Virus record (IMG/VR): IMGVR_UViG_3300037852_000415
Location: 1 to 64,000 of that record
Direction: 5' to 3' (one strand)
Length of the DNA stretch: 64,000 nt
DNA from: a virus
The position numbers and the translations under genes were made by a program. Positions within the stretch are counted from its first letter, which is position 1; each line of letters begins with the position of its first letter. This document shows, one piece after another, positions 16,594-64,000 of this stretch. A model generated the notes under the pieces. That model was given only the letters and a program-made list of their open reading frames with translations. It searched no databases and had not been told where the DNA came from.

Positions 16594-17193
16594 GTGACAG
16601 CTCTCGACAACGCAATCGCATCTTTGGCGCAAGCGCAAGCTACGTGGAACACGTGGATGGGTGGAAGTCTCCCCGGCGACCTGCAGCATGGTGTAGCCGC
16701 CTACCAAGCCGCTGACGAAGCCAGCCTCGCTGCCGCCGCCTACGCCGCCAACCTAGCCCCCGGCACGCCCGCCGCCAACATGGCCCAGGGGAACGCCTTC
16801 GCGTGCAGTTCGGCGCGGCTAGCGCTCGATGCCGCGCTAAGCGCTTGGCTGAACCAATACGGGCAGGATGTCGCCTTCTGGCAGTCGGGGAACTACCGCC
16901 AGCAAGCGCAGACGATTCTCTTCGCTCTGGCGCCGGCCACGATTCAAGCGGCGCAGGCAGCGGTGCCGCCGGCAAGGTTCAATTTCAACTTGCCTAGAAG
17001 CAATTGGCAGCAGGGAAGAGTCGTGGCAACGAACCCTCGTAACAGCCGCGTCGGCGTGGGGCAGACGGCGGCTTCCACCTTCGCCCCCGGGGGCACCGCG
17101 ACGCCGCTCATCATCTTCTCTCTACTCGGCATCGCTGGGCTAGCGGCGATGGCAATCATCAGCGAGAAGTTCGCAAGCAAAAAGCAGAGGTAG
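16594..17193 (+). CDS. Ala-rich membrane protein with C-terminal anchor
   Basis: RVGVGQ motif, LIIFSLLGIAGLAAMAII TM, KKQR tail. Confidence 0.7.
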   Translation: MTALDNAIASLAQAQATWNTWMGGSLPGDLQHGVAAYQAADEASLAAAAYAANLAPGTPAANMAQGNAFACSSARLALDAALSAWLNQYGQDVAFWQSGNYRQQAQTILFALAPATIQAAQAAVPPARFNFNLPRSNWQQGRVVATNPRNSRVGVGQTAASTFAPGGTATPLIIFSLLGIAGLAAMAIISEKFASKKQR

Positions 17194-44786: not shown

Positions 44787-45791
44787 ATGGCTCGAGTACC
44801 TGTGGTCTACGAGGTTCCGGCTCAAGAGTGCCCGGCGGGCGGCGGCTGCCCGCATAGCCACCCCTCGAGTGTGCCGACGCTCCCGTGCCCTACGTGCGGC
44901 GCCGAGGACTACGTACCTAAGGGTCCCGACGGTAAGCCCGTGGGCAATAAGACGCCTTCCTACTACGACGCCAAGCGCGAGGCGCAGAAGCACAACGGCT
45001 ACGTCGAGTACGTCGACGAGAAGCGCGGCGCCGAGGCGCTACGGCGCAAGACGGTTCGCCTCAAGTGGCATCGTGATAAGAGTGACGGGCTCTATGCGGT
45101 AGGCGCCCTCGGGCGCTACAGCATCCACCGCCCCGAGCGCGTCAAGAGGAGTGCCGGCGTCTATCGGTGGGTGATTACGCTCGGTGGCTCGATGTTGCCG
45201 AAGAGCTTCGACGAGATCGCCAAGGCGAAGGCGTATGCCCAGCGCTACGACATGAAGGCGCCTTCGGTGCCGCAAGCGCCTGACTTGCCGGCGCCCTACG
45301 CGATGCCGCGCCCCCCCGACTTGCCCGGCTGCGCCCCTTTCACGACCACCACGCGCGACGAGGCGAAGTTCTCGGCGTGCATGGCGCTCGCGCAGCAGAT
45401 CGGGCCTATTACGACGCCGACGGCTGTCTACAAGCTCCTGAAAGACTACTGCGTTCGACAGGACCAGGAGGTGTTCCTAGTCGTCAGCCTCGACCTGCAC
45501 GGCCACTTACGCGGTATAGACGAGGTCGCCAAAGGACAGCGAGACCGCGTAAGCGTAGGCGTAGCGGATGTTATCCGTGCCGCACTCGATCGGGGCGCGA
45601 AGGGATTCATCGTTTGCCATACACACCCAAGCGGGAAAGCGCGTCCATCGCAAGCGGACAGAGACTTGACGAGGGCAATCATCAAAGCGCGTGCGCCATT
45701 CGGCAGTGATTGTGTGTTCGTAGACCACATAGTTCTAGGGCTGAACGAGTTCGCCTCAATCAAGCGTCGCAAGCTCTTTAGGGCACGCTAA
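44787..45791 (+). CDS. RadC-like JAB/MPN domain protein with long N-terminal extension
   Basis: QEVFLVVSLD...HTHPSG...PSQAD...VDHIVLG. Confidence 0.88.
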   Translation: MARVPVVYEVPAQECPAGGGCPHSHPSSVPTLPCPTCGAEDYVPKGPDGKPVGNKTPSYYDAKREAQKHNGYVEYVDEKRGAEALRRKTVRLKWHRDKSDGLYAVGALGRYSIHRPERVKRSAGVYRWVITLGGSMLPKSFDEIAKAKAYAQRYDMKAPSVPQAPDLPAPYAMPRPPDLPGCAPFTTTTRDEAKFSACMALAQQIGPITTPTAVYKLLKDYCVRQDQEVFLVVSLDLHGHLRGIDEVAKGQRDRVSVGVADVIRAALDRGAKGFIVCHTHPSGKARPSQADRDLTRAIIKARAPFGSDCVFVDHIVLGLNEFASIKRRKLFRAR

Positions 45792-47273: not shown

Positions 47274-48803
47274 ATGGCTACAGCAGAAAACGACGGCCTG
47301 GAGGCCTTCGAGGAGTCGAGTATCGAGGAAGAGACTGAAGAGGAAGAGGCTGGTGAAGAAGAGCCCGAAGAGGTGCCCGCCCCGCCCGCGCCTGTGCACC
47401 TCGCCAAGACTAAGACGCCCGGCGCGGCTGCCGATAAGAAGCGAAAGCCCCGCAACGACAAGGGCGGCACCCACGCTGCGCCCGGTGAGGGGTGGACCAA
47501 TCGCGAGGCAGACCTCATGTGGCCCGAGATGCTTCAACGCATCGGGCGGCTCAATCCCCCGCGTACGCCGTACGACCTCAGCATCCAAGTGATTCGGTTG
47601 TCGCCATCAGCGGTGACGTTGCCGAACCAGATCGACGGCGCCTACGTCGTCGGCGACAAGCGCCGTTCACCGGGTGACGCGCTCAGGGAAGCCGTCATCG
47701 ACTACTACCACCTGCCCGCCAACTGCGGCCCCGAAGAGTACGAGCTACGTTTCGTATGGAAGCAGACCGGGCGCGTCTACGGCAGGGGGAAGCTCACTCT
47801 CCCCTCCTGCGAAGAGATCATCGGCTACAGGCAGGCTGCCGAGCGCATGCGGCGCCGCCCCAGACAGGCTCACGGAGGCATGGCGAATCCGGCGCTCGAC
47901 GATGCGCCGTACGATGAATTCGAGCCGCCCCAGGCGCCGCGCAGGACCCCCGTAGGCTACGGCGCTGCGCCGCCGCAAGCGCCGGTGTTTGCGCCTGCGC
48001 CGTCGGCGTCGGCTGCGGACGCCTCTGGCGAGGTTGGCTACCTGCGACAGCAAGTAGGCTACTTGAGCGGGCAGCTGCAGCAGCTGATGGGTCTCATGGG
48101 CAAGCCTGGCTTCGGCGCCGCGCCGCCGTCGACGGCGCCAACCGGTGTCGCTGCAGCGCCGATGCCTGCGCCGCAAGCGCCGCCTGCCTCCTTAGAGGAG
48201 GCGATTGAGCGCGCCGCCGAGCGCATCCTAGCGCGCGCCGGCATCAAGCCGGGTATGCCGGGTGTCGGCACCGCCGGTACGCCCCCGCCTACCCCCGCAA
48301 GTGCCACTAACGAGCTTCACGCCGGCATCAACGCCTTCCGCACCTTCGTCGGTTTGGGCAAAGAGCTCCGACATCTCGCGAAGGAATTGAACAACGACTT
48401 CGGCGAAGGCGCCGGGGGCGCCGACGAAGAGCCGCAGCAGCTCATAGCGGAGCCCGTCGTCACTCCACCTAGCCCCGAGGATAAGCTCCCTTTCGAGGTG
48501 GTGCCCATTCCCGAGACAGACTTCCTCGGACACCCCGCAAAGTACGCCATCGATAAGGAGACGGGCGGCTTCTCGAGGGAGGGCTTCTTCATGGCGAACC
48601 CCGGTCTCGCTGAAAAAGCCATCGAAGTTGGCGGCAAGCTTGTCGAGGCGCTTAGCCGTATCGGTAAGGGCGGGGCCCCCCAGCAAGCTGCGGCGGAAGT
48701 CGTGCGCGAGATTCCTAGGGGTGCAGTAGACGCAGGCGTCGCCGGCAACGGTGGCGGCAGTAACGATGGCGGTGAAGTGCCGGACGGTAACGGAGGACTC
48801 TAG
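47274..48803 (+). CDS. Acidic/Pro-rich putative morphogenesis or scaffold protein
   Basis: Poly-E N-terminus; low-complexity centre punctuated by GYGA, GFGA, GVAA, GVGT. Confidence 0.65.
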   Translation: MATAENDGLEAFEESSIEEETEEEEAGEEEPEEVPAPPAPVHLAKTKTPGAAADKKRKPRNDKGGTHAAPGEGWTNREADLMWPEMLQRIGRLNPPRTPYDLSIQVIRLSPSAVTLPNQIDGAYVVGDKRRSPGDALREAVIDYYHLPANCGPEEYELRFVWKQTGRVYGRGKLTLPSCEEIIGYRQAAERMRRRPRQAHGGMANPALDDAPYDEFEPPQAPRRTPVGYGAAPPQAPVFAPAPSASAADASGEVGYLRQQVGYLSGQLQQLMGLMGKPGFGAAPPSTAPTGVAAAPMPAPQAPPASLEEAIERAAERILARAGIKPGMPGVGTAGTPPPTPASATNELHAGINAFRTFVGLGKELRHLAKELNNDFGEGAGGADEEPQQLIAEPVVTPPSPEDKLPFEVVPIPETDFLGHPAKYAIDKETGGFSREGFFMANPGLAEKAIEVGGKLVEALSRIGKGGAPQQAAAEVVREIPRGAVDAGVAGNGGGSNDGGEVPDGNGGL

Positions 48804-49123: not shown

Positions 49124-50256
49124 GGCGCGGCGCTGACGACGACCGTCATCATGAACACCAGGTTCACGACGTTATTGCCGGAGTTGTCCAAGCCGTAGCG
49201 CGAGAAGACCAACGTGCCCCTGCCGGGCGACGTAGCTTGGAACGTGATGACGCCTTGGTCGGCTGCTTGTGAGGCCGCCGACTCCTGCCCCGCCATCGTG
49301 GTGATGGGCATCTGGCCGCCGTCGAGGGCGGCCGCGCCCCACGTGTTGCCGCTTGCGTCGACCCACCCGGTGTACCAGGAGTTGCAGTACACCCCCGGCG
49401 TGCTCGTGCTGCCCGAGGCGAAGACACCGCCGCGTGAATCCTGCGAGTTTTGCGGCGCCTGGGGCACGCACATGGGCGTCGCCGTCGGGTCGTTGAAGAT
49501 GAACGACACCACGTCCCCGACGTTCAGCGCGATGGGGTTACCGATCTGCTTGCCGTAGGTCGATACCGACTGGTTGACCCCGTTCGGCCAGCTGACTGCG
49601 TAGCTCTTGGGCACGTAGGGGGGCGCCTGCTGAGCGCCGCCGCCGTGCGGGTTGAAGACGACGACGCCCCCGCCCCCGTTGCTGCCGGGCTTGATCGTGG
49701 CGCCGCCGGTGTTCTTCGCGCCCCCGCCTTGGTTGACGACGAAACCGCCGCCGGTAAAGACGCCTGTGTTGGCGCCTTTCTGCGTAGCACCTGCTTGGTT
49801 GGACCCGCTACCGCCGCCCTGGTTGACGCCGCCGATAGCAGCGCTGACAGTTACCGTAGCGCTCAGCGACGGCACCCCCGAGACGGGCTGCCCCGTCGAG
49901 CTCGAGTAGAGCGTCGCGGCAATCATCGACGCGCCGACCTGCAGCCCCGTGAGGGTGAAGCTGTGGAGTGCCGGGCTTCCGACGCCGCCGCCCGTCGTGC
50001 CGACGTCGACGATGCTTACGACGGCGTTATTCTTCGCTTGCATCACCCACGCACTGCCGAGCATCTCGGGAAGCGTCACGCGCACCGGCACCCCGATGAC
50101 GAGTGGAATCGACGCGGGTAGAGACGCGCCGTTGTTGGCGGCGCCGCCCCCGCTTGTCGACGCTGCCGGCTTGTTACCGAGCAGTAGAAAACCGCCGACG
50201 CCAAGAATCGCCGCGGCGGCGCCGATGCCAACCCAAACCTTCGTCGACTCTTTCAT
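49120..50256 (-). CDS. N-anchored membrane protein with two Ig-like domains and Gly-rich linker
   Basis: N-terminal TM; FTLTGLQVGAS and FQATSPGRGTLVF Ig/chagasin-like strands. Confidence 0.7.
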   Translation of the reverse strand: MKESTKVWVGIGAAAAILGVGGFLLLGNKPAASTSGGGAANNGASLPASIPLVIGVPVRVTLPEMLGSAWVMQAKNNAVVSIVDVGTTGGGVGSPALHSFTLTGLQVGASMIAATLYSSSTGQPVSGVPSLSATVTVSAAIGGVNQGGGSGSNQAGATQKGANTGVFTGGGFVVNQGGGAKNTGGATIKPGSNGGGGVVVFNPHGGGAQQAPPYVPKSYAVSWPNGVNQSVSTYGKQIGNPIALNVGDVVSFIFNDPTATPMCVPQAPQNSQDSRGGVFASGSTSTPGVYCNSWYTGWVDASGNTWGAAALDGGQMPITTMAGQESAASQAADQGVITFQATSPGRGTLVFSRYGLDNSGNNVVNLVFMMTVVVSAAP

Positions 50257-50516
50257 CGTCTTTTCCTAGTTGCCAGCGTTGCCGCCGCCACCGGCGCTGC
50301 TGGCGCCGCTATTCGGGCCGCCGCCTTGGGAGCCTCCTGGGGCGACACCGCTGGAGCCGCCCCCACTCGAGCCTCCGCCACCACCAGAGGGCGGTTGAGG
50401 CGGTGCCGGGGCAGTTGCGTTTGCTGCGCGGCGTTGGCGCTGTTCGCCCAGAGAGCCACGCCCACAATCGCGGCTACGGCCCCGACGCCGAGCAGGATCT
50501 TCGTGGACTTCTTCAT
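50253..50516 (-). CDS. Small N-anchored membrane protein, possibly frameshifted
   Basis: MKKSTKILLGVGAVAAIVGVALW; the -1 frame gives a G/S-rich tail ending at 50266. Confidence 0.55.
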   Translation of the reverse strand: MKKSTKILLGVGAVAAIVGVALWANSANAAQQTQLPRHRLNRPLVVAEARVGAAPAVSPQEAPKAAARIAAPAAPVAAATLATRKRR

Positions 50517-50594
50517 CTTGCCGCCACGGCGGCTTCTGCTGCGGTGTCTCATAGGGGGTAGCTTACTCCAACGTCATACTGTAGGCTACAGCTT

Positions 50595-51719
50595 ATGCGC
50601 AGCGCGCGTGACGCAGAGCTGATGCTGATGCCCCACTTGCGGCGCGGCGTCGGGCAGCTTTCAGACTCGGCGCAGATTCAAAGCGTACTCGGAGGCATCC
50701 CAGGCGTCAGCCAAGGCCAAGTCAATCAAGCCATTACGACGTACAACGGGCTAACTTCGGCGGCGACCGGGAGCATCCTCGGCATCCTCAATGGCGGCCC
50801 CATCAACGCCGCTACGCTTGGGCCGGTTGTGGCGTCTGGGATGGCTTTGTTAGGCGCTACGGCGCCCGAGATTGCTGCAGTGGCGATCGGCTTGTCGGTG
50901 CTCGGCGCTTTCGCCTCCTTGTTCGCCCCGGCGCCTCAGAACTGTAGTTGGCGTGTCGCCAACAAGTGTTTCAACGCCAACCGCCCTTCGGGCCCCGGCG
51001 ACCCAGCGTGGATGACGTGGGGTCAATTCGCCCAGAACCCGCTCGACGTCGCGGCGGCGTTCCCTTGGTACTACGTGCAGGCGTGCGACCTCGGCGCCAT
51101 CAACTCGACGCCTACGCCATCACCGCAGCTGCAGTTTCTGAAGACGTACTACGCTGCGTGGCAAGCGAACGCCGAGTATCTCATCAACGGGTATCAGGCG
51201 ATTGACGATTGCGCCCTCCTGACGATTGTGGCTAACGCGTGGAACAACGGGCACGACGGGAGCTCTACGTATACATTCCAACCGACGCCCGCTTTCGGTC
51301 TTCAATCTGAGTGGGATTCGAGCTTCCCTGGCGGCATTCCCCGTGCGGTGCAGTGCCCCGGAGACCAAAACCTGCCCCCATTCGTTCCCGGCGCGCCGCC
51401 GACAGCTAGGAGCTACGTCGGCCTCTTGATGGATGGTGACATCACCGCTACGCGATGCAGCGCCCAGGGGCTTCCCATCAACACGGGCGGGGCGTTCTTG
51501 ACGAGCCACTTCATCCTGCCCCCCAAGGGCCCATCGGTGCCATCGACGACGTCAACAGGCGCGAAGGTTGCACTCGGAGGCGCCGCAGTCGTTGGCGCCG
51601 GGCTGTTGGGGATTGGCTTGTTGGCGCTTATCAAGGGGTGGGGCTTCGGTAAGGCAGTCGACTACGTGTGGGGTAAGACGGGCAAACCCGCCATCGCCTA
51701 CGTCAAGAAACACGTCTAA
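50595..51719 (+). CDS. Putative virion membrane protein
   Basis: RRGVGQ near N-terminus; internal and C-terminal hydrophobic helices. Confidence 0.7.
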   Translation: MRSARDAELMLMPHLRRGVGQLSDSAQIQSVLGGIPGVSQGQVNQAITTYNGLTSAATGSILGILNGGPINAATLGPVVASGMALLGATAPEIAAVAIGLSVLGAFASLFAPAPQNCSWRVANKCFNANRPSGPGDPAWMTWGQFAQNPLDVAAAFPWYYVQACDLGAINSTPTPSPQLQFLKTYYAAWQANAEYLINGYQAIDDCALLTIVANAWNNGHDGSSTYTFQPTPAFGLQSEWDSSFPGGIPRAVQCPGDQNLPPFVPGAPPTARSYVGLLMDGDITATRCSAQGLPINTGGAFLTSHFILPPKGPSVPSTTSTGAKVALGGAAVVGAGLLGIGLLALIKGWGFGKAVDYVWGKTGKPAIAYVKKHV

Positions 51720-52950: not shown

Positions 52951-53305
52951 CGCGAAGCTGCTTAGTCTGCGGAGCTATGTACTACCTCCTCTGCGAAAAG
53001 CACCGCATCAACAACTACTTCAAGTCGCGCCCACCGAGCGGTTCCGGCGCTGTCGCTACCTTCTGGTTCTTTGACTGCACCAACCTGAAGAGCGTCGAGC
53101 ACGCCTTCAACGATGCGCTCGCGTCAGGGAAGAAGTTCAGCGTCTTTCGCCCCTTCCCCATCGCGGGGAGCTGGTTCGGCTGCGACATCGTGGGGTACAC
53201 CCACAGGCCCAATGTCGGCATACACTCTGATGAGGCGGAAGCTGAGCGCCGGGGCGATATGCTCCACGAGTGGATCGAGACGCGAGCGCTGCGCATGGTG
53301 TAGAT

Positions 53306-53416
53306 ATGCTTGATGTTTTCGACACTATCCCGCCCGATGCGCACGCTCTACTGGTGCTTGTCGCCGTCGGCATGTTGCTGTTCGGTGCTGGCCTCTTGGC
53401 GATGCGTAAGCGCTAA
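53306..53416 (+). CDS. 36-aa membrane peptide
   Basis: Own translation MLDVFDTIPPDAHALLVLVAVGMLLFGAGLLAMRKR*. Confidence 0.55.
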   Translation: MLDVFDTIPPDAHALLVLVAVGMLLFGAGLLAMRKR

Positions 53417-53476: not shown

Positions 53477-53992
53477 ATGGGCTGCTGCTCCAACTGTGAC
53501 AAAGGCCTGCCGTGCGCCGACGGTAATGGCGACCTGAACCCCGCTGTAGCTGCCGGTATCGCGGGCAGCGGTATGGGCGCTACCGCCATCGAGATGCAGG
53601 CCCTGCTAAAGTCTCGAGCGATGTCGCCGGCCCAGCGCGCGATGCAGGGCCACGTGCTGATTCAGCAGATGATGAGCGGTCGGCCGATCCGAGGTTTCGG
53701 CCAAGCCGGGGCCGTGCCCGCGAAGACGTGCTGCGGTGGCGGCACCATTATCGACGCGAACGGCAACTGCGTCCCCGCCTGTGTGAGCTCGGTGGGTGGC
53801 GCCGCCGGCAGCGTCGCCGCTAGCATACCGTCGGTAAACGGCCTCTGCCCCCAAGGCTTCCAGCTCGCGCCCCAGGGCATCGCCGACTACTGGTGCCAGG
53901 CGTCGACTACGGCGAAGGTCGCTGTCGTTGCCGGCGGCGTCGGCGTCGTCGGCCTGGGCGCCTGGCTCTTGATGCGCAAGAAGAGGAAGTAG
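53477..53992 (+). CDS. Cys-rich membrane protein with C-terminal anchor
   Basis: AGGAG RBS; GMGA and GFGQ motifs; TM then RKKRK. Confidence 0.75.
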   Translation: MGCCSNCDKGLPCADGNGDLNPAVAAGIAGSGMGATAIEMQALLKSRAMSPAQRAMQGHVLIQQMMSGRPIRGFGQAGAVPAKTCCGGGTIIDANGNCVPACVSSVGGAAGSVAASIPSVNGLCPQGFQLAPQGIADYWCQASTTAKVAVVAGGVGVVGLGAWLLMRKKRK

Positions 53993-54430
53993 ATGCCCCC
54001 CACCAACCAAGGGCGCGCGCTCGTCGCGCGCATGTACCGTGGGCTCGGTCAAGCCTCGAACGCGGCGCTGCCCCCGGGTACCGTAGCGAACCCCACCTAC
54101 GACCCTAACGCCGCCGCCGGTACGCACAACGCGTTTACGTGGGTGTCACAAGTCAGTGGGCTCAACGACGGCGACTGTTCGCAGAGCGCAGTCATCGACC
54201 CCATCACCGGCCAGTGCGCGAATCTCTGCCCCGACAACTCTCGGCCAGCGAACGGCTGCCCGCCCGCGACAGGCATTCCGCTCTGGTGGGGCCTCCTCCC
54301 CATGTGGCAGAAGGTTGCCGTCGGCGCGGGCGGCGCGGCGGTGGTGCTCGGCGGCGGATACATGCTGCTTCACAAGAGTAAGCCCGCCGCGCGACACGCG
54401 AAACGCCGCGCTAAGCATCGCAGAAGGTAG
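53993..54430 (+). CDS. Cys-containing membrane protein with C-terminal anchor
   Basis: YRGLGQ motif; TM then basic tail. Confidence 0.75.
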   Translation: MPPTNQGRALVARMYRGLGQASNAALPPGTVANPTYDPNAAAGTHNAFTWVSQVSGLNDGDCSQSAVIDPITGQCANLCPDNSRPANGCPPATGIPLWWGLLPMWQKVAVGAGGAAVVLGGGYMLLHKSKPAARHAKRRAKHRRR

Positions 54431-55686: not shown

Positions 55687-56049
55687 TTGAGAGGCGTGGG
55701 TGCGAAGACTTTCGAGATGCTGAAGGACGAGGCGCATTACGCGTGGCTCGTATGGTGTCCAGCGTGCAACGAGCCCCATCTCTTCGACGGCCGTTGGACG
55801 TTCAATGGCAATCATGAGCAGCCAAGTTTCCAAGCTTCGATGCTCGTACACGGGTTCCCGGACGAAAAGCCCTCACCGGAGCATCCGCGATGCCACTCGT
55901 TCCTTACGGATGGCGTGTGGAACTACTGCGCCGATTCGACGCACGAGCATGCGGGCAAGTCGCTTCCGGCTCCAGATTGGGCCGATACACGATGGTCTCG
56001 CATGCGACCGGATGGCGTGGTGCCGGCACCGGACGGAGACGCGACCTAG
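55687..56049 (+). CDS. DUF6527-like Cys/His protein
   Basis: CPAC...H...WTFNG....PSF..S...CHSFLTDG....DSTH. Confidence 0.6.
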   Translation: MRGVGAKTFEMLKDEAHYAWLVWCPACNEPHLFDGRWTFNGNHEQPSFQASMLVHGFPDEKPSPEHPRCHSFLTDGVWNYCADSTHEHAGKSLPAPDWADTRWSRMRPDGVVPAPDGDAT

Positions 56050-56073
56050 GGTTTCCAACAACAGAGGAGTGTT

Positions 56074-56484
56074 ATGGATAACGGAGACGTGAGTGGCGCG
56101 TTCGTGCGCAAGGCGTGGCTTCAACAGGTCAACATCGTCGGCTTCCAGCTGACCACCGAAGGCGTCTTCGCGCCTCTGGTAGCCGTCGAGCCCTCCGAAG
56201 ACGAGAACGCGAAAGCCGCCGCCGCTATCCCGACGGGCCCGTACTGGTTTTGGCACAGCGGCATGGGCGCTGTCTGCCTCCCCGGCCCTCAGGGCTTCAT
56301 CGGCTTCAAGGCGCGAGACTTGAAGGAAGCGGGTTGGCGAATTGATGAAGTCGAGCTCGCGCGGCTTTTGCCCCGAGTGCCGGGAAGCGGGCTGGCTTCC
56401 GGCGCTGGCGGAGACGTGAAAGCCGAAGCAGAAGCCGCGCGCCGCCGCGCGCTCATCGATAGGGGCCTCAAGGGCCGGCGATAA
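56074..56484 (+). CDS. Hypothetical protein
   Basis: GAGGAG RBS. Confidence 0.6.
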   Translation: MDNGDVSGAFVRKAWLQQVNIVGFQLTTEGVFAPLVAVEPSEDENAKAAAAIPTGPYWFWHSGMGAVCLPGPQGFIGFKARDLKEAGWRIDEVELARLLPRVPGSGLASGAGGDVKAEAEAARRRALIDRGLKGRR

Positions 56485-56538
56485 GCGACGGCAGTGCGGC
56501 GGTAGCCTCAACCGTCGCCTGAGTGCTATGCTTGCCGC

Positions 56539-56994
56539 ATGGGACGGCCCCCGAAAACACCTGAGGAGCATGCCGCACGTAACGCGTACAGACGAGCACA
56601 CTACGCTGCGCACAAAGATGAGATAAACGCTCGGCGGCGCGCCCCTGAGGCACTTGAGCGATCGCGGGCCGCCGGCCGCGCGCGGTACGCTGCACACAGA
56701 GACGACCCCGGCTTCAAAGAAGAGAATAGGGCTAGGGCGCGTGCGTACGTGGGGGCGCACAAAGACGATCCCGAATTCATCCTAATCTGTTCTCGCTTGA
56801 TGGCTGTGGGTGGTGGACGTGGAGGGCGCGGCAACAATACCGCTCACGTAGACCACGATCATGTTACCGGTGAAGTGCGCGGGCTCTTGTGCCACGCATG
56901 CAATATAGGCATCGGAGGGTTGAGAGACAGCATCGCGCTACTGAAGAACGCCGTCGCGTACCTAGAGAGCGGGCCATCATGCGTACTGGCGTAG
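56539..56994 (+). CDS. Endonuclease VII-like protein, possibly internally deleted
   Basis: HVDHDHVTGEVRGLLCHACNIGIG; first CxxC reduced to ILIC. Confidence 0.75.
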   Translation: MGRPPKTPEEHAARNAYRRAHYAAHKDEINARRRAPEALERSRAAGRARYAAHRDDPGFKEENRARARAYVGAHKDDPEFILICSRLMAVGGGRGGRGNNTAHVDHDHVTGEVRGLLCHACNIGIGGLRDSIALLKNAVAYLESGPSCVLA

Positions 56995-58625
56995 GAAGCG
57001 ATTCGTTCAATCCTGGCGTCAACAGGATGCGCGCAGCCGGCGTGAAGGTCGACGTGCAACCTTACAGCGACGGCCCCGCGGGTGTCGGCCAGAGCCTCGA
57101 CGTCATCGCCCAGAAGATTCGCGAAGGCGCTGCTGACAGTGACCTGCAGGGATGGAGTGCCGAGAAGCTTCGCGCCGCCGGGTTCGACGGGCGCGCCAAG
57201 ACGCCGACGGTACAGCAGCTCTGCGAAGTTCTTCTGGCCGCCTATCGGCAGGAAGTAATCTATGCCAGTGATCCGGCGCGCACCGAGCAGATCCAATCGC
57301 CCGCCGCGACATTGTGCTTACGCCCGGGGCTGTGCCTTCGACGTGGTGACTGCGACGACGGAGTCGTCGCTCTCGGCGCGGCCATTCTGTCGTACGCTGT
57401 GCCCGTGCGGGTTATAAAACAGCCATACGCTCAGCAAGAGCACGTATTGCTGGGCGTCATCGACGACAGCGGCACAGTCTTGTACGTCGATACCGCTAAC
57501 AACCTGTATAAGGTAGGGCCTGGCGGTTCACCGGGGTGTCCGCCTAAGGTGCCTGGCGAAACCTATGTCGACCCCATGAATAGCGCCCCTGCCGGCCCCG
57601 CCGGCACCTCTGGCGCCCAGCTTATCACCCTCGGAGCCTCGCCCAAGATGCAATCTCAATCGCAGTCGTCTCAAGCCGTCTATAGGCACAACAGATGGTG
57701 GCGCCTCAGCGCCGGCTGCGGCGGCAACCTCGAAGTTCACGAAGGCGGCAACTGGTACAGAGTCGGCACCGGCCAGGCCCCCGCGGCGCCGAGCGACTTC
57801 GCAGCTCTGAAGGCGGCGCAGGATGCGCAGTGGAGCCAGGTGTCGGCGCAGATTCAAGCCTGCAGCTCTGGATTGACGGCATCTTCGCAGTCGGCGTTCG
57901 CCTCCGACTATGCCACGTGGCAAGCCTTTGCGGCGTCGACTACGGCGACGGCGGACGACTACACGCGCCTTCGCGCCTTCAACAGCATCCTTCAGGTGTG
58001 GCAGCTGAAGGCGCAGGTCTACTGCAACGCCGCATCGAACCCCGGCGGCGCCGTCGGCGTCGGCGCGATTCACGTGCCGGGCATCAACTGCAACATCGAC
58101 GACTTGAAGGGGCAGAAGTTGCGCCTCCTCGGGCCCTGGACGCAGCTCGGAAACGACGTCGACAACTGCCCGCTCTGCAAAGACGACCGAAGCCTCTGCG
58201 CCGCGACGAGCGCGTATCCCAACGGGGCCCCGAACGGGATGACGCTGACGCAGAAAACCGACTTCCTCCAAGACTTCCTCACGTTTCAGAACTGGTACAA
58301 CGCCGACTTCCCCATCTGCGACGCCGATGCCGAGATAAACCAGGGGCGCGATCTAGAGCAGCGCTACGACAGGTGGCGGAAGATTGTCACCCAATTCTGC
58401 ACCGGCGCGAATCTGCCGGGGGTGCAGTCGCCTGACTTGCCCCCGCTCCGCAATGACGACCCCCGAAGCCCCAACTACGTACCCCCGGCCGGCCCCGGCG
58501 ACATCGCAGCAAGCATCGCGAAGAGTGTCGCCGTCGTCGGCGTCGCAGCCGCCGCGATCTACGGTATGTACATCATCGCCCCGGCGGCGCGGAACCTCTT
58601 CGATAGAGTCACCAAGAAGAAGTAG
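56979..58625 (+). CDS. Transglutaminase-like (Cys-His-Asp) enzyme with C-terminal membrane anchor, candidate maturation protease
   Basis: Y..DP...EQIQSP...GDCDD...EHV...YVD; C-terminal TM plus KKK; likely start MRTGVGS. Confidence 0.8.
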   Translation: MRTGVGSDSFNPGVNRMRAAGVKVDVQPYSDGPAGVGQSLDVIAQKIREGAADSDLQGWSAEKLRAAGFDGRAKTPTVQQLCEVLLAAYRQEVIYASDPARTEQIQSPAATLCLRPGLCLRRGDCDDGVVALGAAILSYAVPVRVIKQPYAQQEHVLLGVIDDSGTVLYVDTANNLYKVGPGGSPGCPPKVPGETYVDPMNSAPAGPAGTSGAQLITLGASPKMQSQSQSSQAVYRHNRWWRLSAGCGGNLEVHEGGNWYRVGTGQAPAAPSDFAALKAAQDAQWSQVSAQIQACSSGLTASSQSAFASDYATWQAFAASTTATADDYTRLRAFNSILQVWQLKAQVYCNAASNPGGAVGVGAIHVPGINCNIDDLKGQKLRLLGPWTQLGNDVDNCPLCKDDRSLCAATSAYPNGAPNGMTLTQKTDFLQDFLTFQNWYNADFPICDADAEINQGRDLEQRYDRWRKIVTQFCTGANLPGVQSPDLPPLRNDDPRSPNYVPPAGPGDIAASIAKSVAVVGVAAAAIYGMYIIAPAARNLFDRVTKKK

Positions 58626-58632
58626 GTGCCTC

Positions 58633-59097
58633 TTGAAGCGCCTCATTGCAAAGGGCACCGAGGTGCTCTTCGAGATGCACGACGGGCGCGACATCGAGCC
58701 GCGAAGTAGGTACGCTTTGCTGCACGACCCCGACGGCGTCGTCTGGGCCAAGTGCTCACTTTTGGTGATGCCTTTCGACAGAGGGGGCGCGCCGCTTTCG
58801 GATGACGACGCTGACAGCCGCGACTACTTCGGCGCCGCCTACGTGCGAAAAGTCGGCAGCGTCGACACGCCGCCTAGCGACTTGACGGAGTGGCAAGAGG
58901 TAGGGGCCGTGCGGCGCATCTATTACTACCGCGATGGTGTGAAGTACCCGGGTGACTTCAAGCACACTTTCGGCAAGCGCAGTATCGCCTCACTCTTCAG
59001 AAGCGGCGAGGCGGTACTCCACAAGCGCGGCAGCCTCTATCGCCTCGAGCTCCCCGACTGGTGCTCCGTCGACGACCGCGGTATCGTCGCTCCTTAG
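58633..59097 (+). CDS. Hypothetical protein in capsid module
   Basis: TTG start after AGGTG; good codon usage. Confidence 0.55.
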   Translation: MKRLIAKGTEVLFEMHDGRDIEPRSRYALLHDPDGVVWAKCSLLVMPFDRGGAPLSDDDADSRDYFGAAYVRKVGSVDTPPSDLTEWQEVGAVRRIYYYRDGVKYPGDFKHTFGKRSIASLFRSGEAVLHKRGSLYRLELPDWCSVDDRGIVAP

Positions 59098-59152
59098 AGA
59101 AGTGCGCGTGGCACTTCGCGCGTAACGCGCTACGCTCTCTCTGCGTAAGCCG

Positions 59153-60820
59153 ATGTCTGACTACATCGACATCATGCAGCAGGAGACCGGAGACGACATG
59201 GCAGCCAGCCGACGCCGAAGCCGCCGCGCCAAAAGCGGCAAAAAGTCGAAGAATCGCGCGGCATTCGAGCGCGCCAGGCGCATCGCGAAGAAGCGCCCCG
59301 CTCCGAAGCGGCGCAGCGCACGCAGAGGCGCAAAAGAAGCTTCACGCGCGAAAAGTCGTACCCGCCGCTTGACAAAAGCGCGTAGGGCAGTGCACACTTC
59401 CCGAAGTGCAGGGGAGTCTCGGGGAAAACGAAGGAACCGACGTCGCAAACAGCGAGTTTCCAGGGAGACCCCGTCAATGGCCCGTAAACGAAAGCGCAGC
59501 TGCAAGTACGGTAAGCTCAAGGTGAAGCGCGGGCGGCGCCGGTGTAAGAAGCCGGCGGCGGTGCACGCTCGCCGGAAGAGCGCGAAGCGCGTGGCGGCTG
59601 GCCGGAAGGCCGCCCGCACCCGCAAGCGCCGCGCCGGTCGGGGGAGCCCCTCCCACGGTATGCACTCTGCGTGGGAAGCTCCGAAGCGCAAGCGTAGCAA
59701 GAAGCGCGGCAAGAAGCGCAGCCGCGCTAGCTACAAGCGCAAGCGTCCGGGCCATCGCAAGCACAGCGTGAGGGGCTACTACCGCAAGAAGAGCCGCGGT
59801 AGCCGCAAGCGCGTCTACGTCAGGGGCCATCGGAGCCATGAGGCCCCGAAGCGTCGTCGACGCCGCCGGCATCACGCCGCCGCAAAGCGCCACTCGCGTC
59901 GCCACTACCACCGTCGCTCTCGGGCGATGGAGAACCCCATCTCCGTGATGGACGGCGTGGTCGGCGGCGTTTGCGGCCTCATCGGCTACGGCGCGGCTGA
60001 AGTCGTGGACCGCCTCCTCGCCACCCACGCCCTCACCGACACGAACACCAAGGACGCGAACGGGGTGGAACTCTACACCGACCCCGCCGACTCGAGCGGT
60101 CACTGGAATGCCACCTACGTGCTCGGGCCCATGAGCCTCGGCAGGTGGGCGGCAGGCCTCGGCATCGCAATCGTCCCGCTCTTGGCTGGCGGGATGATCA
60201 AGAAGCCTGCGCTGCGCTCCTGCGTGCAGTTCTTCGGCTTCGGCGCGTTGATTCGCACCGGCGGAAAGGGCCTCACGGATCTGCTCGCCTACGTCTCGCG
60301 CAAAACCGCGGTCGGCCAGCGCCTCTTCATCCCCGAAGACAGCGCCCAGTCCGCGCTCAGCGCCGGCAAGTACGACACGACGCTCCCGGGCATCGCGCCC
60401 GGACCTACCGGCCTCGCGGGGCTTCCCCCCGCCGGCTGCGGGTGCGTCAACTGCAAGACGGGCGTCGGCGCTTGCTGCGGCAAGACGACCATCGCTCAGC
60501 TTCAGCAGGGCACCATCCAGCGCGCCACGGGGCAGCCCCAGACGGGCTCTGTCGCCAACCCCACCGTCAACACCGGCGAGACGGTAGGCACTCCGGCTCA
60601 GCAGCCTCCGGGCGGCGCGAACCAGGGCGGCACCCCTGTCGGCGTCGCCAATCCGCCCTCGCCGTCGCCAGTCGGCGTCGTCTTCGGTGGCGGTGGCATC
60701 GTGCCCTCTACTTCACCTGGACCCCTCCGCGGGGCCCCGCTTGGCTCGGGTGCAGGCCGCTCCCCGGCAATGCCCGTCCTTTACAACCCCAACATTCGGC
60801 GCATGGCCGAAGGAAACTAG
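59153..60820 (+). CDS. Protamine-like Arg/Lys-rich protein fused to a membrane domain, candidate DNA-condensing core protein
   Basis: About 240 aa dominated by R/K/S/H, then hydrophobic helices and a Cys cluster; directly upstream of the capsid candidate. Confidence 0.75.
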   Translation: MSDYIDIMQQETGDDMAASRRRSRRAKSGKKSKNRAAFERARRIAKKRPAPKRRSARRGAKEASRAKSRTRRLTKARRAVHTSRSAGESRGKRRNRRRKQRVSRETPSMARKRKRSCKYGKLKVKRGRRRCKKPAAVHARRKSAKRVAAGRKAARTRKRRAGRGSPSHGMHSAWEAPKRKRSKKRGKKRSRASYKRKRPGHRKHSVRGYYRKKSRGSRKRVYVRGHRSHEAPKRRRRRRHHAAAKRHSRRHYHRRSRAMENPISVMDGVVGGVCGLIGYGAAEVVDRLLATHALTDTNTKDANGVELYTDPADSSGHWNATYVLGPMSLGRWAAGLGIAIVPLLAGGMIKKPALRSCVQFFGFGALIRTGGKGLTDLLAYVSRKTAVGQRLFIPEDSAQSALSAGKYDTTLPGIAPGPTGLAGLPPAGCGCVNCKTGVGACCGKTTIAQLQQGTIQRATGQPQTGSVANPTVNTGETVGTPAQQPPGGANQGGTPVGVANPPSPSPVGVVFGGGGIVPSTSPGPLRGAPLGSGAGRSPAMPVLYNPNIRRMAEGN

Positions 60821-60873
60821 CTCAAGGGGTGGTGCCCGCAGGGACACCCTGAGAATCTAGGAAGGCAAACATC

Positions 60874-62157
60874 ATGGCTGGTCGTCTCGCAAAACCCACT
60901 CAGAAGAACCCGCGGCTGACGCTCGGCGTCGGCCAGGGCACGCCCAACTCGGACATCGTCAACCTCTTCAAGAGCGCGACGAGCTGCCCCATCTACGCTT
61001 TGCCGACGGTGGCGAAGCGCCAGTGGGAGTTCGAGGGCCCGGTGTCGCAGGCCAACGTTCAGCGAAGCCTCGGCAACCAGATCGACATCCTCGGCGGCAG
61101 CAACGCCACGGCGCCCGACAACGTCTACCAGACCGACGGGCTCATCAACGGTGAATTCCAGACGTACGTCCTCGCGTGCGCCGTCGGAATGCACCTCGAG
61201 CCGGAACCCATGTGCTGGACGGCGCAGGGCAACGCGATTCTCGTGCCGGGCTCGTCCATCCCGATGCCGAACAGCCCCGACGACTACACCGTGCTCGACC
61301 AGAGCAACTTGGTGTACGGCGGTGCGACGCAGTCTGTGCCTCAGGTGCAGACGAGCATGCGGCGTGCGGTGCTCGAGTGGGGCTGGTGGGCGAACTACGC
61401 CTTCTGGCACCTCGTCCGCGGGTACAACCTCCGTTGGACCTACGGCTCCCTCATCAACATCATGGACGAGCAGCTGCGCGACACCGCGTACACGCCGCCC
61501 AACGCTCAGGAAGGCTCTGCCTCTTCGAGCCAGGTTGCTATCTGCGACTTCGTGCAGCGCACGAACCAGCGGTACATCTCGACGCTCGCCGCGACGCGCA
61601 TGTTCCTCTGGCAGAACCTCGTTCGCGTCGGCACCCTCGGCGCGACGACCACGTCGACCGAGACGCAGGGCAAGTTCCGGCCCTTCGACGACGTCCTCGT
61701 GGACGCCACCTACGGAGGCATGGATCTGCGAAGCATGCTGCGTAACAACAGCGAGTTCCGCACCCTCGAGCAGCCGTACATCCTGAAGCCGGGCGTTCCG
61801 CCGGGCCTCATCCTCGAAGCGAACGGCGACAACGCCGAGCAGGCGCTCTTCCAGGCGCAGTTCGACGCGTCGGGCGGCTTCACGGGCGCGACCCCGCCTT
61901 ACTCGTTGACCCCCTTCGGCACGCTCATCGCGAACGGCGCCGGCCAGGTGTTCGACGAGCTCTCGGCGGACAACGTCGATGTTCTCCAGCAGGTCAACAC
62001 CGAGCACTACGTGTTCAAGGGCGGAACGGCGCTCATGAGCATGGAGATCAAGGGCTACGAGATCACCGAGCCCCTCGCGGACCAGATCAAGAGCGACCCC
62101 ACGCTCCAGGCTCAGATCTGCTCCGAGTGCGGCTGCGCGGTCGGCTGGGCCTCGTAA
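60874..62157 (+). CDS. Candidate major capsid protein (single jelly roll with insertions)
   Basis: Extreme C/G-ending codon bias; YVLACAVGMHL, QPYILKPGVPPGLIL and terminal MSMEIKGYE strands. Confidence 0.55.
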   Translation: MAGRLAKPTQKNPRLTLGVGQGTPNSDIVNLFKSATSCPIYALPTVAKRQWEFEGPVSQANVQRSLGNQIDILGGSNATAPDNVYQTDGLINGEFQTYVLACAVGMHLEPEPMCWTAQGNAILVPGSSIPMPNSPDDYTVLDQSNLVYGGATQSVPQVQTSMRRAVLEWGWWANYAFWHLVRGYNLRWTYGSLINIMDEQLRDTAYTPPNAQEGSASSSQVAICDFVQRTNQRYISTLAATRMFLWQNLVRVGTLGATTTSTETQGKFRPFDDVLVDATYGGMDLRSMLRNNSEFRTLEQPYILKPGVPPGLILEANGDNAEQALFQAQFDASGGFTGATPPYSLTPFGTLIANGAGQVFDELSADNVDVLQQVNTEHYVFKGGTALMSMEIKGYEITEPLADQIKSDPTLQAQICSECGCAVGWAS

Positions 62158-62254
62158 TCGGCGGAAGCTGATTCACGGCAGGGCAGCGCAAGCTGCCTCG
62201 CCGTCGACAGCCTCGCTGTGAGAGCGGTGCTGTCGACGACGAAAGGCGTGAGAG

Positions 62255-62893
62255 ATGGCTGACGAGACGAAAGAGCTGAAGGAAGGCGTCGGAAGCTGCG
62301 GTAACCCCAGCCAGTGCTGCGGGCCCGCCGTCGAGGACGTCCGCCAGATGCTTGCGCTCGGCTCACCGAGACTCGCGCTAGCGAAAGCGCTCGGCGTGCC
62401 CCTCGCACCCTGGGCGTTCACCATCACTGCCACGTTCACCAGCGTCAGCCAGAACCTCGTCGCCGACCAGGGCCAAAACGTGAAGCTGGTGCAGGACATC
62501 ATCGTCGATGACATCCGCTACCAGATCGACACGCAAGTGACGCCGAGCGGCGACTTCGACAACTTCAATTACGCCTGCTTCGCACAACAGAGCAATATCG
62601 AAGCGAACCTCCGCGTCAGCGGCGCGCCCCGATACGACGTGTACTCGCAGTTCACGCCGCTCGCGATGATTCGCCGGCCCACGCAAGGGTGGGTTCTCCA
62701 GCAGACGAACGGCGTCTTGATGTCCTTCCAGAGCAACGTTCCCCTTCAGAATGTGCCCATCAAGATCTCCTTCGTCTTCGAGTGCCGGACCACGCACTGG
62801 GCGAAGCTCATCGACATGAAGCAGCGCGAAGCGGTGCAGATGCTCTGCAAGCTCGGGTACGACGTCGGGTCTTACACAGAGCTCTACTGCTAA
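62255..62893 (+). CDS. Candidate second single-jelly-roll capsid protein
   Basis: FTITATF, DIIVDDIRYQI, IEANLRV, TPLAMI, GWVLQQTNGVLMSF, IKISFVFECR strand pattern. Confidence 0.55.
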   Translation: MADETKELKEGVGSCGNPSQCCGPAVEDVRQMLALGSPRLALAKALGVPLAPWAFTITATFTSVSQNLVADQGQNVKLVQDIIVDDIRYQIDTQVTPSGDFDNFNYACFAQQSNIEANLRVSGAPRYDVYSQFTPLAMIRRPTQGWVLQQTNGVLMSFQSNVPLQNVPIKISFVFECRTTHWAKLIDMKQREAVQMLCKLGYDVGSYTELYC

Positions 62894-62907
62894 GGGAGGT
62901 GCCCTAG

Positions 62908-63801
62908 ATGGCGCCTCGCCAAAAAGAGTACCAGAGCTGGGGCATCGACCAGAGCGCTGCGTTCGTCGAGACGGACCCGTTTGGCGGGCTCTCGAGCCTC
63001 GGCGTCAAGGTACCGACACTCTCGACAGCCGCGCTGCCCTCGGCGAATCCGCCGACGCTCGGGTACAACAGTCGCTACCTCTTTCACCTCGCGAGCTTCC
63101 ACGTGCCCGAGAGTGGCGGGTGTGCGCGCATCACCGGCTACCGGCTGAACGTCCAGATCTGGGCGTTGCAGTCTGGCGAGGGCGGCAACCGGTACGTCAA
63201 GCAAACCGTCTACGACCCCGCCTTCAGCTTCCAAGACGGCAACTGGAGCTGGCACCTGCGCTTCATCCCCGATGTCGGGATGAACGGCATCAGAGTGAGC
63301 CCCCCTCTGCCCGTCAATCAGAATGACGGCACGACGGCAAACCTCGATGGCACTGCGTACCGATGGGCTGACACGCCCGCGATTCTCTATGAGAACATGC
63401 TCGTCGCCGCCGGAGATCCCTTCTACGTCGATCTGTTGGATTACACACCCCCGAATAGCGGCAGGCCTTGGGGAGAGCCCCTCGCCGGCATGGGCACATT
63501 CTACGGCGTGAGCACGCCTTGGAATACGCACGGCGCATGGAGCGCGCTCGATATCGAGTGCGATGCGCCAGGCACCTACGCCCTCTTCTGCAGCGTTAGG
63601 CAAACGAATAGCTCTACGCGAACCCCGCTGACGCCGCCTGGCACCTTCTTCGGTAACGGTCTCTCCGCCGAAGAGCAGTTCCTCTTGAACTTCCCCGGCG
63701 CCTGGATCGGCTCTGTTGGGGGGAGCCTCGTAGTCACCTCCGACGACGGCGACTGCGGCGACCAGTTCGGCAATCGTGAGAAGGAAGGGCCCTGCTCCTA
63801 A
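62908..63801 (+). CDS. Candidate minor capsid/penton-like beta protein
   Basis: Beta-rich (ARITGYRL, WSWHLRFI, YALFCSVRQT); follows the capsid candidates. Confidence 0.45.
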   Translation: MAPRQKEYQSWGIDQSAAFVETDPFGGLSSLGVKVPTLSTAALPSANPPTLGYNSRYLFHLASFHVPESGGCARITGYRLNVQIWALQSGEGGNRYVKQTVYDPAFSFQDGNWSWHLRFIPDVGMNGIRVSPPLPVNQNDGTTANLDGTAYRWADTPAILYENMLVAAGDPFYVDLLDYTPPNSGRPWGEPLAGMGTFYGVSTPWNTHGAWSALDIECDAPGTYALFCSVRQTNSSTRTPLTPPGTFFGNGLSAEEQFLLNFPGAWIGSVGGSLVVTSDDGDCGDQFGNREKEGPCS

Positions 63802-64000
63802 TGGCTACTTCGGCATCGATGATTCGACACTCTGAGGGCGTTGCCGGCGGGCAAGCGGCCCCACCTGGCAGTGGCGGCGGGCAATCCGCGCGCCCCGCGC
63901 CCGGGAGCGACGGGGACATCGCGACGCGCCCCGGTGACGCAGGCGGCGGTGGGCATTCGACCCACGGCGCTACGCAGCAAGGCGCGCCTCTAGTCGCTAA
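63801..64000 (+). CDS. Partial (3'-truncated) Gly-rich protein
   Basis: TAATG overlap; frame open to the window end. Confidence 0.55.
   Translation, partial: MATSASMIRHSEGVAGGQAAPPGSGGGQSARPAPGSDGDIATRPGDAGGGGHSTHGATQQGAPLVA

Follow-up and report, generated by a model that had tools for sequence, protein, structure and literature searches.

A Polycationic, Membrane-Type Protein with Putative Nested Isoforms Is a Candidate DNA-Binding Core Protein of an Uncultured Soil Virus

This study concerns a gene of an uncultured soil virus, IMG/VR record IMGVR_UViG_3300037852_000415, which is complete at 77,344 bp and flanked by 62-bp terminal repeats; the window analyzed, 64,000 nucleotides (nt) long, comprises positions 1 to 64,000 of that record. 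The gene, here called the target, encodes a protein that joins a long, protamine-like basic region to a predicted three-helix membrane-type domain, and at about even confidence we read it as a DNA-binding core protein, made as nested isoforms, of a large, non-tailed, and probably membrane-containing jelly-roll virus. In that role it would most likely be a membrane-anchored polycation that holds the viral DNA against an inner membrane. The features reported in the original prediction, namely the open reading frame (ORF), its basic blocks, the RETP, WEAP, HEAP, and MENP motifs, the in-frame ATGs, the TTGACA-18-CACACT site, and the hydrophobic helices, were all found where it had located them (Table 1).

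By composition count, residues 1 to 258 of the target are 28% arginine and 15% lysine, with a net charge of +99. A search with the C-terminal part of the protein recovered 27 relatives, and a profile search extended the family to 391 clusters at 50% identity in public metagenomes; the loci compared were 9 viral and 36 metagenomic. The N-terminal regions of the relatives carry net charges of +52 to +123, mostly 90 to 105, though their sequences are hardly alignable, and what is conserved in the basic region appears to be its net charge, not its sequence. The fusion of basic and membrane-type parts is kept in about 27 nonredundant relatives, and wherever a locus includes the 5' side, the frame is open for 185 to 340 codons upstream of the conserved domain. 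About 25 divergent relatives share a leader pattern, M..DY[IL][DE].[LM]...AA[ST], at their extreme N terminus, and because of that position, the start of the target is placed at 59153. This ATG has no Shine-Dalgarno (SD)-like site, and two relatives (L005 and L008) have AGGAGG at that place. The palindrome GCGCG-TAA-CGCGC lies directly before the same ATG, within positions 59098 to 59152.

Comparisons with the two closest genomes (L003 and L004), made at synonymous distances of about 0.8 to 1.2, gave ratios of nonsynonymous to synonymous substitution rates (dN/dS) of 0.25 to 0.51 for amino acids (aa) 1 to 108, 0.27 to 0.37 for aa 109 to 258, and 0.10 to 0.30 for the helical domain, none of the four segments compared exceeding 0.51. 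Because the leader is conserved and dN/dS lies at 0.25 to 0.51, we conclude that the basic part is translated, and, judged from sequence, it is always joined to the hydrophobic domain. Translation beginning only at MENP, the outcome that the original prediction regarded as fatal to its proposal, is contradicted by the open frames, the leader, and these ratios. The target had no match in Pfam, PHROGs, PDB sequences, BFVD by Foldseek, INPHARED phage records, or ESM Atlas annotation; no Pfam family was found at an E value of 0.1 or below for the target or 26 relatives, leaving the family without names, and Pfam and PHROG searches detected no homology of the target to pVII, mu, or protamines.

The membrane-type domain was modeled by AlphaFold2 (AF2) from a 54-sequence alignment, which gave predicted local distance difference test (pLDDT) scores above 90 for aa 257 to 406. 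The model is a three-helix bundle (helices in Table 1) with a beta-hairpin at residues 295 to 309, and the chain past residue 406 is predicted to be disordered. Structural neighbors of this domain are almost all integral membrane proteins. Its N terminus is basic, as is the short loop 2 (KK), and loop 1 is acidic. This charge distribution fits a topology of three transmembrane (TM) segments by the positive-inside rule, in which the polycation would lie across the membrane from the Cys cluster and the Pro-rich tail. Hydropathy is moderate, with a maximum of 1.59, and the conserved residues D286, R287, R368, and K372 lie in or at helices. The domain is probably embedded in a membrane; the membrane domain claimed at the outset is thus favored, in terms of a model, by the bundle, its membrane-protein neighbors, and the loop charges.

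Evidence for nested products comes from a second start inside the basic region. Met109 aligns with a methionine in nearly all relatives, in the form M-[AT]-[KR]-[KR], and an SD-like tetramer lies 5 to 13 nt before the homologous Met in 25 of 26 nonredundant loci, the corresponding rates being 19% at random codon positions of these regions and roughly one in seven for the remaining internal Met codons. The residues encoded at this site vary (SRETPS, LQGKPP, SSRKAP, SKETVH, KQGIHK, and others) while a GGAG, AGGA, or GAGG core is retained; since the encoded residues differ between loci, the constraint seems to act on nucleotides. Only one of the two internal ATGs proposed in the original prediction stands. 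The ATG at 59477 (Met109) has AGGGAG 9 nt upstream and the family-wide support just described, whereas that at 59198 (M16), with AGGAG 12 nt upstream, was rejected, there being no Met at that place in L003 or L004. A start at Met259 of AMENP was also rejected: no SD-like site falls in the window for it, and some relatives have L, R, A, or K there. The gene calls of some homologues begin at the equivalent of Met109 (P0001 and P0003); calls starting at MARKRKR or MENP were set aside as caller choices, the upstream frame being open in every locus that includes upstream DNA.

Upstream of the internal ATG, by 90 to 135 nt, 22 of 27 loci carry an in-frame TTGAC[AG] encoding Leu-Thr, and the other five have TTGC-type hexamers at the same distance. 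The residues around the box are variable (RRLTKA, KSLTSR, RGLTYH, GGLTGA, HHLTKT), TTG makes up only 10.9% of the Leu codons in these ORFs, and the Thr codon at the box is never ACC or ACT. Twenty of the box-carrying loci span at least 7 clusters at 60% identity. The capsid genes begin 53 nt downstream of the target, with no promoter-like site in between. We read these features as a conserved intragenic promoter, ribosome site, and start that would yield a nested 447-aa form, which is probably encoded on the same transcript as the capsid genes, and the full-length form, with its leader and first basic block, would come from read-through transcripts. On this account the gene would carry overlapping codes: within a disordered coding region, constraint on the nucleotides would keep a −35-like box and a ribosome-binding site (RBS), and these signals would shape the amino acid motifs RLTK and RETP.

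The acidic residues that interrupt the basic region are not placed at random. In 20,000 residue shuffles, 0.064 copies of [AS]xExP were expected in the basic region, which holds 4, and Ala or Ser stands at position −2 of all seven glutamates (AFE39, AKE62, AGE88, SRE105, AWE175, SHE230, AME260), compared with 1.6 expected. Among 140 internal glutamates of 28 nonredundant relatives, P3 is Ala in 43% and Ser in 20% (background, 14% and 8%), P2' is Pro in 31% (background, 4%), and P3' is Arg in 44% (background, 27%), giving a family-wide consensus of [A/S]-x-E-[A/T]-P-[R/K]. The punctuation first noticed in a single protein is therefore above chance and conserved across the family. Many copies terminate a repeated module, H.V[RK]GY...V.V[RK].H[MR]S.E, which occurs one to three times per homologue. 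The best-kept copy is A-M-E-N-P at the domain junction, where only Asn261 is invariant and relatives show variants such as KRNPS, IKNPI, and AMENA.

Prohead proteases of SPN3US and phiKZ cleave at A-X-E and S-X-E, and T4 gp21 likewise cuts after Glu (PMC5694885). The sites in the target fit the type recognized by T4 gp21 and phiKZ gp175, in which Glu occupies P1 and P3 is small or aliphatic (A/S/G-X-E or L/I-X-E; PMC5694885); in the family, A or S stands at P3 in 63% of the 140 sites, compared with a background of 22%. The cleavage role first proposed for them has this resemblance in its favor, while no matching protease was found; we regard cleavage after these glutamates as plausible, at rather less than even confidence, and not as a finding. 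Two other explanations were rejected, 2A-type ribosome skipping at ENP because NPGP is absent, and phosphorylation of Ser at S-x-E, as the principal explanation, because Ala occurs there twice as often as Ser. Self-cleavage at an Asn-Pro bond reportedly occurs in reovirus mu1, and such a reaction at the invariant Asn261 was considered as a possibility.

The genomic setting is that of a virus with a jelly-roll capsid candidate and no recognizable tailed-phage head. The target lies in a block of genes for proteins of 578 aa, the target itself, 427 aa, 212 aa, and 297 aa that is syntenic in 9 viral genomes of 69 to 78 kb. The 427-aa neighbor, our major capsid candidate, has 188 homologues and a predicted jelly-roll fold (pLDDT 86.9); Foldseek against the PDB returned only nonsignificant papillomavirus L1 rows with TM-scores of about 0.1, and there was no match in phage records or PDB sequences. 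Six-frame searches of the full genome with profiles for capsid, portal, and terminase (PF05065, PF04860, PF03354, PF03237) found no TerL_ATPase, Terminase_6N, Phage_capsid, or Phage_portal, the control genomes being positive, and no match to FtsK_SpoIIIE (PF01580) or HerA/DUF87 (PF01935) was found in the full genome (14 of 14 controls positive). Walker A motifs occur only in a Dda-like helicase, VapE, Sak4, and one 157-aa protein. Pfam and PHROG scans of the proteome found replication genes, tail-fiber-like proteins, M23, and an integrase, with no head genes; the gene content includes PolA-UDG, VapE, SNF2, a Dda-like helicase, Sak4, ThyX, an integrase, and tail-fiber-like genes, besides a JAB-domain protein (44787 to 45791).

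At least 10 proteins of the virion module have a TM segment followed by a polybasic C-terminal tail, for example, LLMRKKRK, RHAKRRAKHRRR, YYKKKHGRRR, and RGKKKRRRRLRR, which suggests a membrane with one strongly cationic face. These features fit a large virus that has a membrane and neither a tail nor a packaging motor, and a condensing polycation would have its place in such a virus.

The observations lead to a model whose central parts we infer: that the protein binds DNA, where it lies in the virion, how it is oriented with respect to the DNA, and that it is cleaved. The disordered N-terminal polycation, at about +100 per copy, would bind and neutralize packaged double-stranded DNA (dsDNA), and the three-helix domain from AMENP onward would sit in the virion membrane. 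The polycation and basic loop 2 would occupy one membrane face, and the acidic loop 1, the Cys cluster, and the Pro-rich tail the opposite face, towards the capsid. With the polycation on the DNA face and the Cys/Pro tail on the capsid face, the protein would, we propose, connect the DNA by way of the membrane to the shell. It would be made as two nested products, a minor 555-aa form from 59153 and a 447-aa form from Met109 (59477), the latter served by its own RBS and by the intragenic TTGACA box (59369), which probably drives the downstream capsid genes too. The [A/S]-x-E-[A/T]-P-[R/K] sites, the last of them at the domain junction, are candidate maturation cleavage sites, and cleavage there would release basic peptides of 17 to 70 aa from the anchor.

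Several observations weigh against this reading, which draws on sequence, a structural model, and genomic context. If the membrane were to invaginate as in PRD1, basic domains that face the cytoplasm would be turned to the capsid and not to the DNA. In its favor, near-identical soil metatranscriptome contigs lie on 59418 to 59764, 59839 to 60053, and 60191 to 60641 of the target; RNA libraries may, however, contain DNA, and contigs do not show transcript ends. No contig from the four RNA runs lies on 58600 to 59417, the first starting at 59418, just past the proposed promoter; stretches without contig cover prove nothing, and this gap was not used as evidence. The promoter-like site first described holds up in its conserved TTGACA, whereas the −10-like element is weak and only partly conserved (CACACT, TCACTT, TCAATT), and a sigma-70 consensus scan of 56000 to 64000 called no promoter. 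Single TTGAC[AG] hexamers are common in the genome (40 and 69 per strand, compared with 23 expected), so the box carries weight only because it is conserved across genomes. As for cleavage, the S77 protease profile (PF03420) had no match at an E value of 1 or below across the full 77,344-bp genome, proteome-wide Pfam scans found no protease family besides M23, and the Glu motif is not enriched in other virion proteins of the genome. The Glu codon of RETP is part of the SD site of the internal start, and RETP is for that reason at least partly a nucleotide-level feature.

The same location and DNA role could belong to a protein that is never cleaved, an alternative that we consider doubtful. 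The [A/S]-x-E-x-P sites would then be structural punctuation, each ending the beta-hairpin-like module (H.V.GY...V.V..H.S.E) and capping the next basic helix (E-x-P-K/R-K/R), thereby splitting the polycation into DNA-wrapping segments. The conserved context of more than 10 residues ([VI][KR].H[MR]S.E.P[KR]) suits such a module over a minimal protease site, and the layout of the sites resembles helix capping, of which a Pro at N1 and an acidic residue before the helix start are common features; the lack of a Glu-specific protease in our genome searches and of the motif as a common trait of other virion proteins points the same way. On the other side, the best-conserved copy, AMENP, coincides exactly with the point where two unrelated domains meet and where release could serve a function, A/S-x-E has the same form as known viral maturation sites, and the conserved upstream neighbor resembles, as a lead, a transglutaminase or cysteine protease. 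An unlikely role is that of a genome-delivery (pilot or ejection) protein, carried bound to DNA, whose helices insert into the host membrane while the polycation escorts the DNA. The predicted combination of a membrane-active helical domain with a nucleic acid-binding region would suit this role, as would the conserved D286, R287, R368, and K372 inside the helices, which fit an oligomeric channel over a simple anchor, and PRD1-type membrane-containing phages deliver DNA via a membrane-derived tube (PMC6356626). However, this virus has many tail-anchored, basic-tailed proteins, which suggest that the membrane face is charged in general. Each copy of the target carries a charge of about +100, and its gene lies next to the most codon-biased capsid gene and is probably co-transcribed with it, all of which suggests a high copy number, whereas pilot proteins are low-copy.

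We give little credence to an assembly factor whose polycation binds anionic lipids or hyper-acidic viral proteins, not DNA, and which recruits membrane or curves it while particles assemble and is then degraded at the Glu sites. The genome does encode unusually acidic potential partners, a 796-aa acidic-repeat protein (28775 to 31165) and a 509-aa scaffold-like protein with an acidic N terminus (47274 to 48803); multiple cleavage-like sites would yield small fragments, like the scaffold propeptides of giant phages, and PRD1-like membrane formation would place the polycation outside the vesicle. Conservation of a net charge of about +90 to +100, not of sequence, is nevertheless what would be expected for bulk DNA neutralization, and in a virus with no packaging ATPase for naked DNA, some condensing agent is needed. 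Tail-fiber-like genes (a Peptidase_S74 chaperone domain and PHROG tail-fiber families), a genome size and replication genes typical of tailed phages, and, as T4 and phiKZ-like phages also show, an acidic/hydrophobic leader before a basic stretch that contains A/S-x-E sites would all be accommodated if this were a very divergent tailed phage with an internal head protein like the T4 internal proteins or T7 core proteins, targeted by its leader and trimmed by an undetected prohead protease. We regard this as very improbable, given that searches of the complete genome gave no match to terminase, portal, HK97 capsid, or S77 protease while controls were positive, that it has no spare Walker A protein, and that its conserved, most codon-biased structural protein is a jelly roll.

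The reading of the target as a membrane-anchored core protein can be set beside several known systems. Adenovirus pVII and pre-mu (pX) are Arg-rich, protamine-like proteins that neutralize and condense dsDNA in a jelly-roll capsid; they are made as precursors with short cleavage motifs and processed by the adenoviral cysteine protease. The target shares with them a protamine-like polycation encoded beside a jelly-roll gene and, as a lead, a neighbor resembling a cysteine protease or transglutaminase where adenovirus has a cysteine protease. It differs in having no sequence or fold relationship to them and in its membrane-type domain, the adenovirus proteins being soluble; adenovirus also cuts at (M/I/L)XGX-G type sites, whereas the candidate sites here follow Glu, and it possesses a packaging ATPase and lacks an internal membrane. 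Portogloboviridae (Sulfolobus polyhedral virus 1) differ in their archaeal host and 20-kb genome and in a DNA-coating protein that is separate and soluble and has no detected homology to the target. An FtsK/HerA-type ATPase is present in PRD1-like viruses and sphaerolipoviruses and absent in Portogloboviridae, as it is, by our profile searches, from the present genome.

Among tailed phages, the basic T4 proteins IPI to IPIII are packed with DNA at about 360 copies each and have an N-terminal targeting leader of 10 to 19 residues; head proteins of T4, phiKZ, and SPN3US are processed after Glu, with a small P3 residue in phiKZ and SPN3US, and T4 gene 21 has a nested internal start (gp21/gp21s) (PMC9026906, PMC5694885). 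The statement in the original prediction that tailed phages generally lack such proteins thus needs an exception for the T4 internal proteins (PMC9026906). The target resembles these systems in its leader, basic composition, A/S-x-E sites, and nested internal start. In contrast, they belong to viruses with HK97 capsids, portals, terminases, and an S77-family protease, none of which was detected here, and the T4 internal proteins lack a membrane domain and carry much less charge. In capsid proteins with arginine-rich arms, such as the hepatitis B core with its C-terminal domain and those of many small icosahedral viruses, a disordered polycationic arm neutralizes the genome, and charge is conserved over sequence (PMC7096446). 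The target, too, has a disordered polycationic extension in which charge rather than sequence is conserved. Those arms are 10 to 50 residues long and part of the capsid protein itself, whereas the arm of the target, about 240 residues long, extends a membrane-type protein encoded by a large dsDNA virus.

Basic proteins that condense the genome occur in adenoviruses, baculoviruses, giant viruses, and some archaeal viruses, the last being few. To our knowledge, a design that ties DNA to membrane in this way has not been described for bacterial viruses, and known membrane-containing phages use an ATPase to load naked DNA into particles that have already formed. If our reading is true, a conserved membrane-anchored polycation would point to a different, motor-free mode of DNA encapsidation in prokaryotic viruses, a mode suggested by the polycation adjoining a jelly-roll gene in complete 70- to 80-kb bacterial-type genomes without a packaging ATPase. 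We can extend this only tentatively, as something possible rather than probable, to an undescribed lineage of large, tail-less soil viruses (60 to 80 kb and more) that lack any packaging motor. In these, the genome would be co-condensed onto a membrane-anchored polycation that a virion protease later cuts after Glu into free basic peptides, the isoform amounts being set by the intragenic promoter.

Table 1. Features of the target gene and its surroundings (positions in the window unless marked otherwise)
Feature	Position	Strand	Remarks
Target ORF, long isoform	59153..60820	+	555 aa, stop included
N-terminal leader MSDYIDIMQQETGDDMAA, aa 1-18	59153..59206	+	acidic/hydrophobic, net charge -5; conserved
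Basic block I, aa 19-108, long isoform only	59207..59476	+	net +37; holds promoter-like box and RBS
-35-like hexamer TTGACA	59369..59374	+	codons Leu73-Thr74
Weak -10-like hexamer CACACT	59393..59398	+	18 nt past the -35-like box
[AS]-x-E-x-P site 1, SRETP	59459..59473	+	overlaps SD
AGGGAG SD-like site	59462..59467	+	9 nt before internal ATG; includes Glu105 codon of RETP
Internal in-frame ATG, Met109	59477..59479	+	start of 447-aa short isoform (MARKRKR...)
Basic block II, aa 109-258	59477..59926	+	net +67, 12 His; dN/dS 0.27-0.37
Conserved KRVAAGRKAARTRKRR motif in basic block II	59585-59632	+	
[AS]-x-E-x-P site 2, AWEAP	59669..59683	+	
Repeated module H.V[RK]GYY...V.V[RK].H.S.E, aa 204-230	59762..59842	+	ends in SHE/AP site
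[AS]-x-E-x-P site 3, SHEAP	59834..59848	+	
AMENP, junction of basic region and membrane-type domain	59924..59938	+	Asn261 invariant; 27-sequence alignment
Helix 1, aa 265-290, Gly-rich, hydrophobic	59945..60022	+	invariant D286-R287 at end; AF2 pLDDT >90, hydropathy
Helix 2, aa 329-346	60137..60190	+	top hydrophobicity (Kyte-Doolittle 1.59); hydropathy, AF2
Helix 3, aa 352-381, QFFGFG...R...GK	60206..60295	+	R368, G371, K372 conserved; AF2, alignment
Disordered Pro/Gly-rich C-terminal tail, aa 407-555	60371..60817	+	pLDDT <55, alignment
Cys cluster CGCVNCKTGVGACC, aa 429-442	60437..60478	+	GCGC..C..G.G.CC in most homologues
578-aa protein, upstream neighbor	56889..58625	+	DCDD...HV...D core, C-terminal TM anchor; conserved motif
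Jelly-roll protein, 427 aa, major capsid candidate, downstream neighbor	60874..62157	+	conserved; GC3 (G+C content at third codon positions) 0.91
Tail-anchored, basic-tailed proteins	16225-16416, 16594-17193, 28775-31165, 50253-50552, 50595-51719		
Tail-anchored, basic-tailed proteins, further	53270-53416, 53477-53992, 53993-54430, 56889-58625; genome 64310-65146		

The GC3 of the target ORF is 0.80, similar to that of the remaining genes, and the end of its tail is conserved, as LYNPNIRR in the target and NPYxWG in most relatives. The 578-aa upstream protein has an invariant core, ...C..C....DCDD...HV...D, and a TM anchor at its C terminus that ends in a KKK tail. Viral Transglut_core proteins are its neighbors in the ESM Atlas at a score of 0.90, which we treat as a lead only, and searches found no Pfam or PDB sequence match, a profile search against the PDB being empty as well. 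This protein is possibly a virion transglutaminase or cysteine protease and, as such, a candidate for the protease of the model. Short Cys clusters recur in unrelated virion-module proteins (60437 to 60478, 62110 to 62150, 62285 to 62325, and 53477 to 53520), among them CSECGCAVGW at the C terminus of the capsid candidate, SCGNPSQCCGP at the N terminus of the 212-aa protein, and MGCCSNCDKGLPC in a 171-aa protein; possible roles are metal binding, disulfide formation, or lipidation.

In four soil metatranscriptome libraries, which come from different studies, contigs match the capsid candidate gene (60874 to 62157) at 99% identity or more, and the virus or its close kin seems active or abundant in several soils. 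A host look-up returned only two short contigs binned in metagenome-assembled genomes (Polyangiaceae and Chloroflexota), from which no host was assigned. The 796-aa protein at 28775 to 31165 (+ strand) has a long acidic repeat region nearly free of Lys and Arg, a strong TM segment, and a polybasic tail, with a weak match to Peptidase_M23 (E value, 7.7e-5); it could conceivably assist the polycation as a counter-ion or chaperone. Between the 578-aa gene and the target lies a small ORF, 58626 to 59097 (+ strand), of about 140 aa from an internal ATG and containing MHDGRDIEPRSRY; this stretch is conserved in L003 (tblastn, opposite frame). Finally, an 84-aa KGG-type repeat protein (L002:2332-2583; genome positions 65831 to 66085, + strand; Pfam KGG E value, 3.4e-10) is kept downstream of the capsid block in all 9 of the 9 related viral loci.

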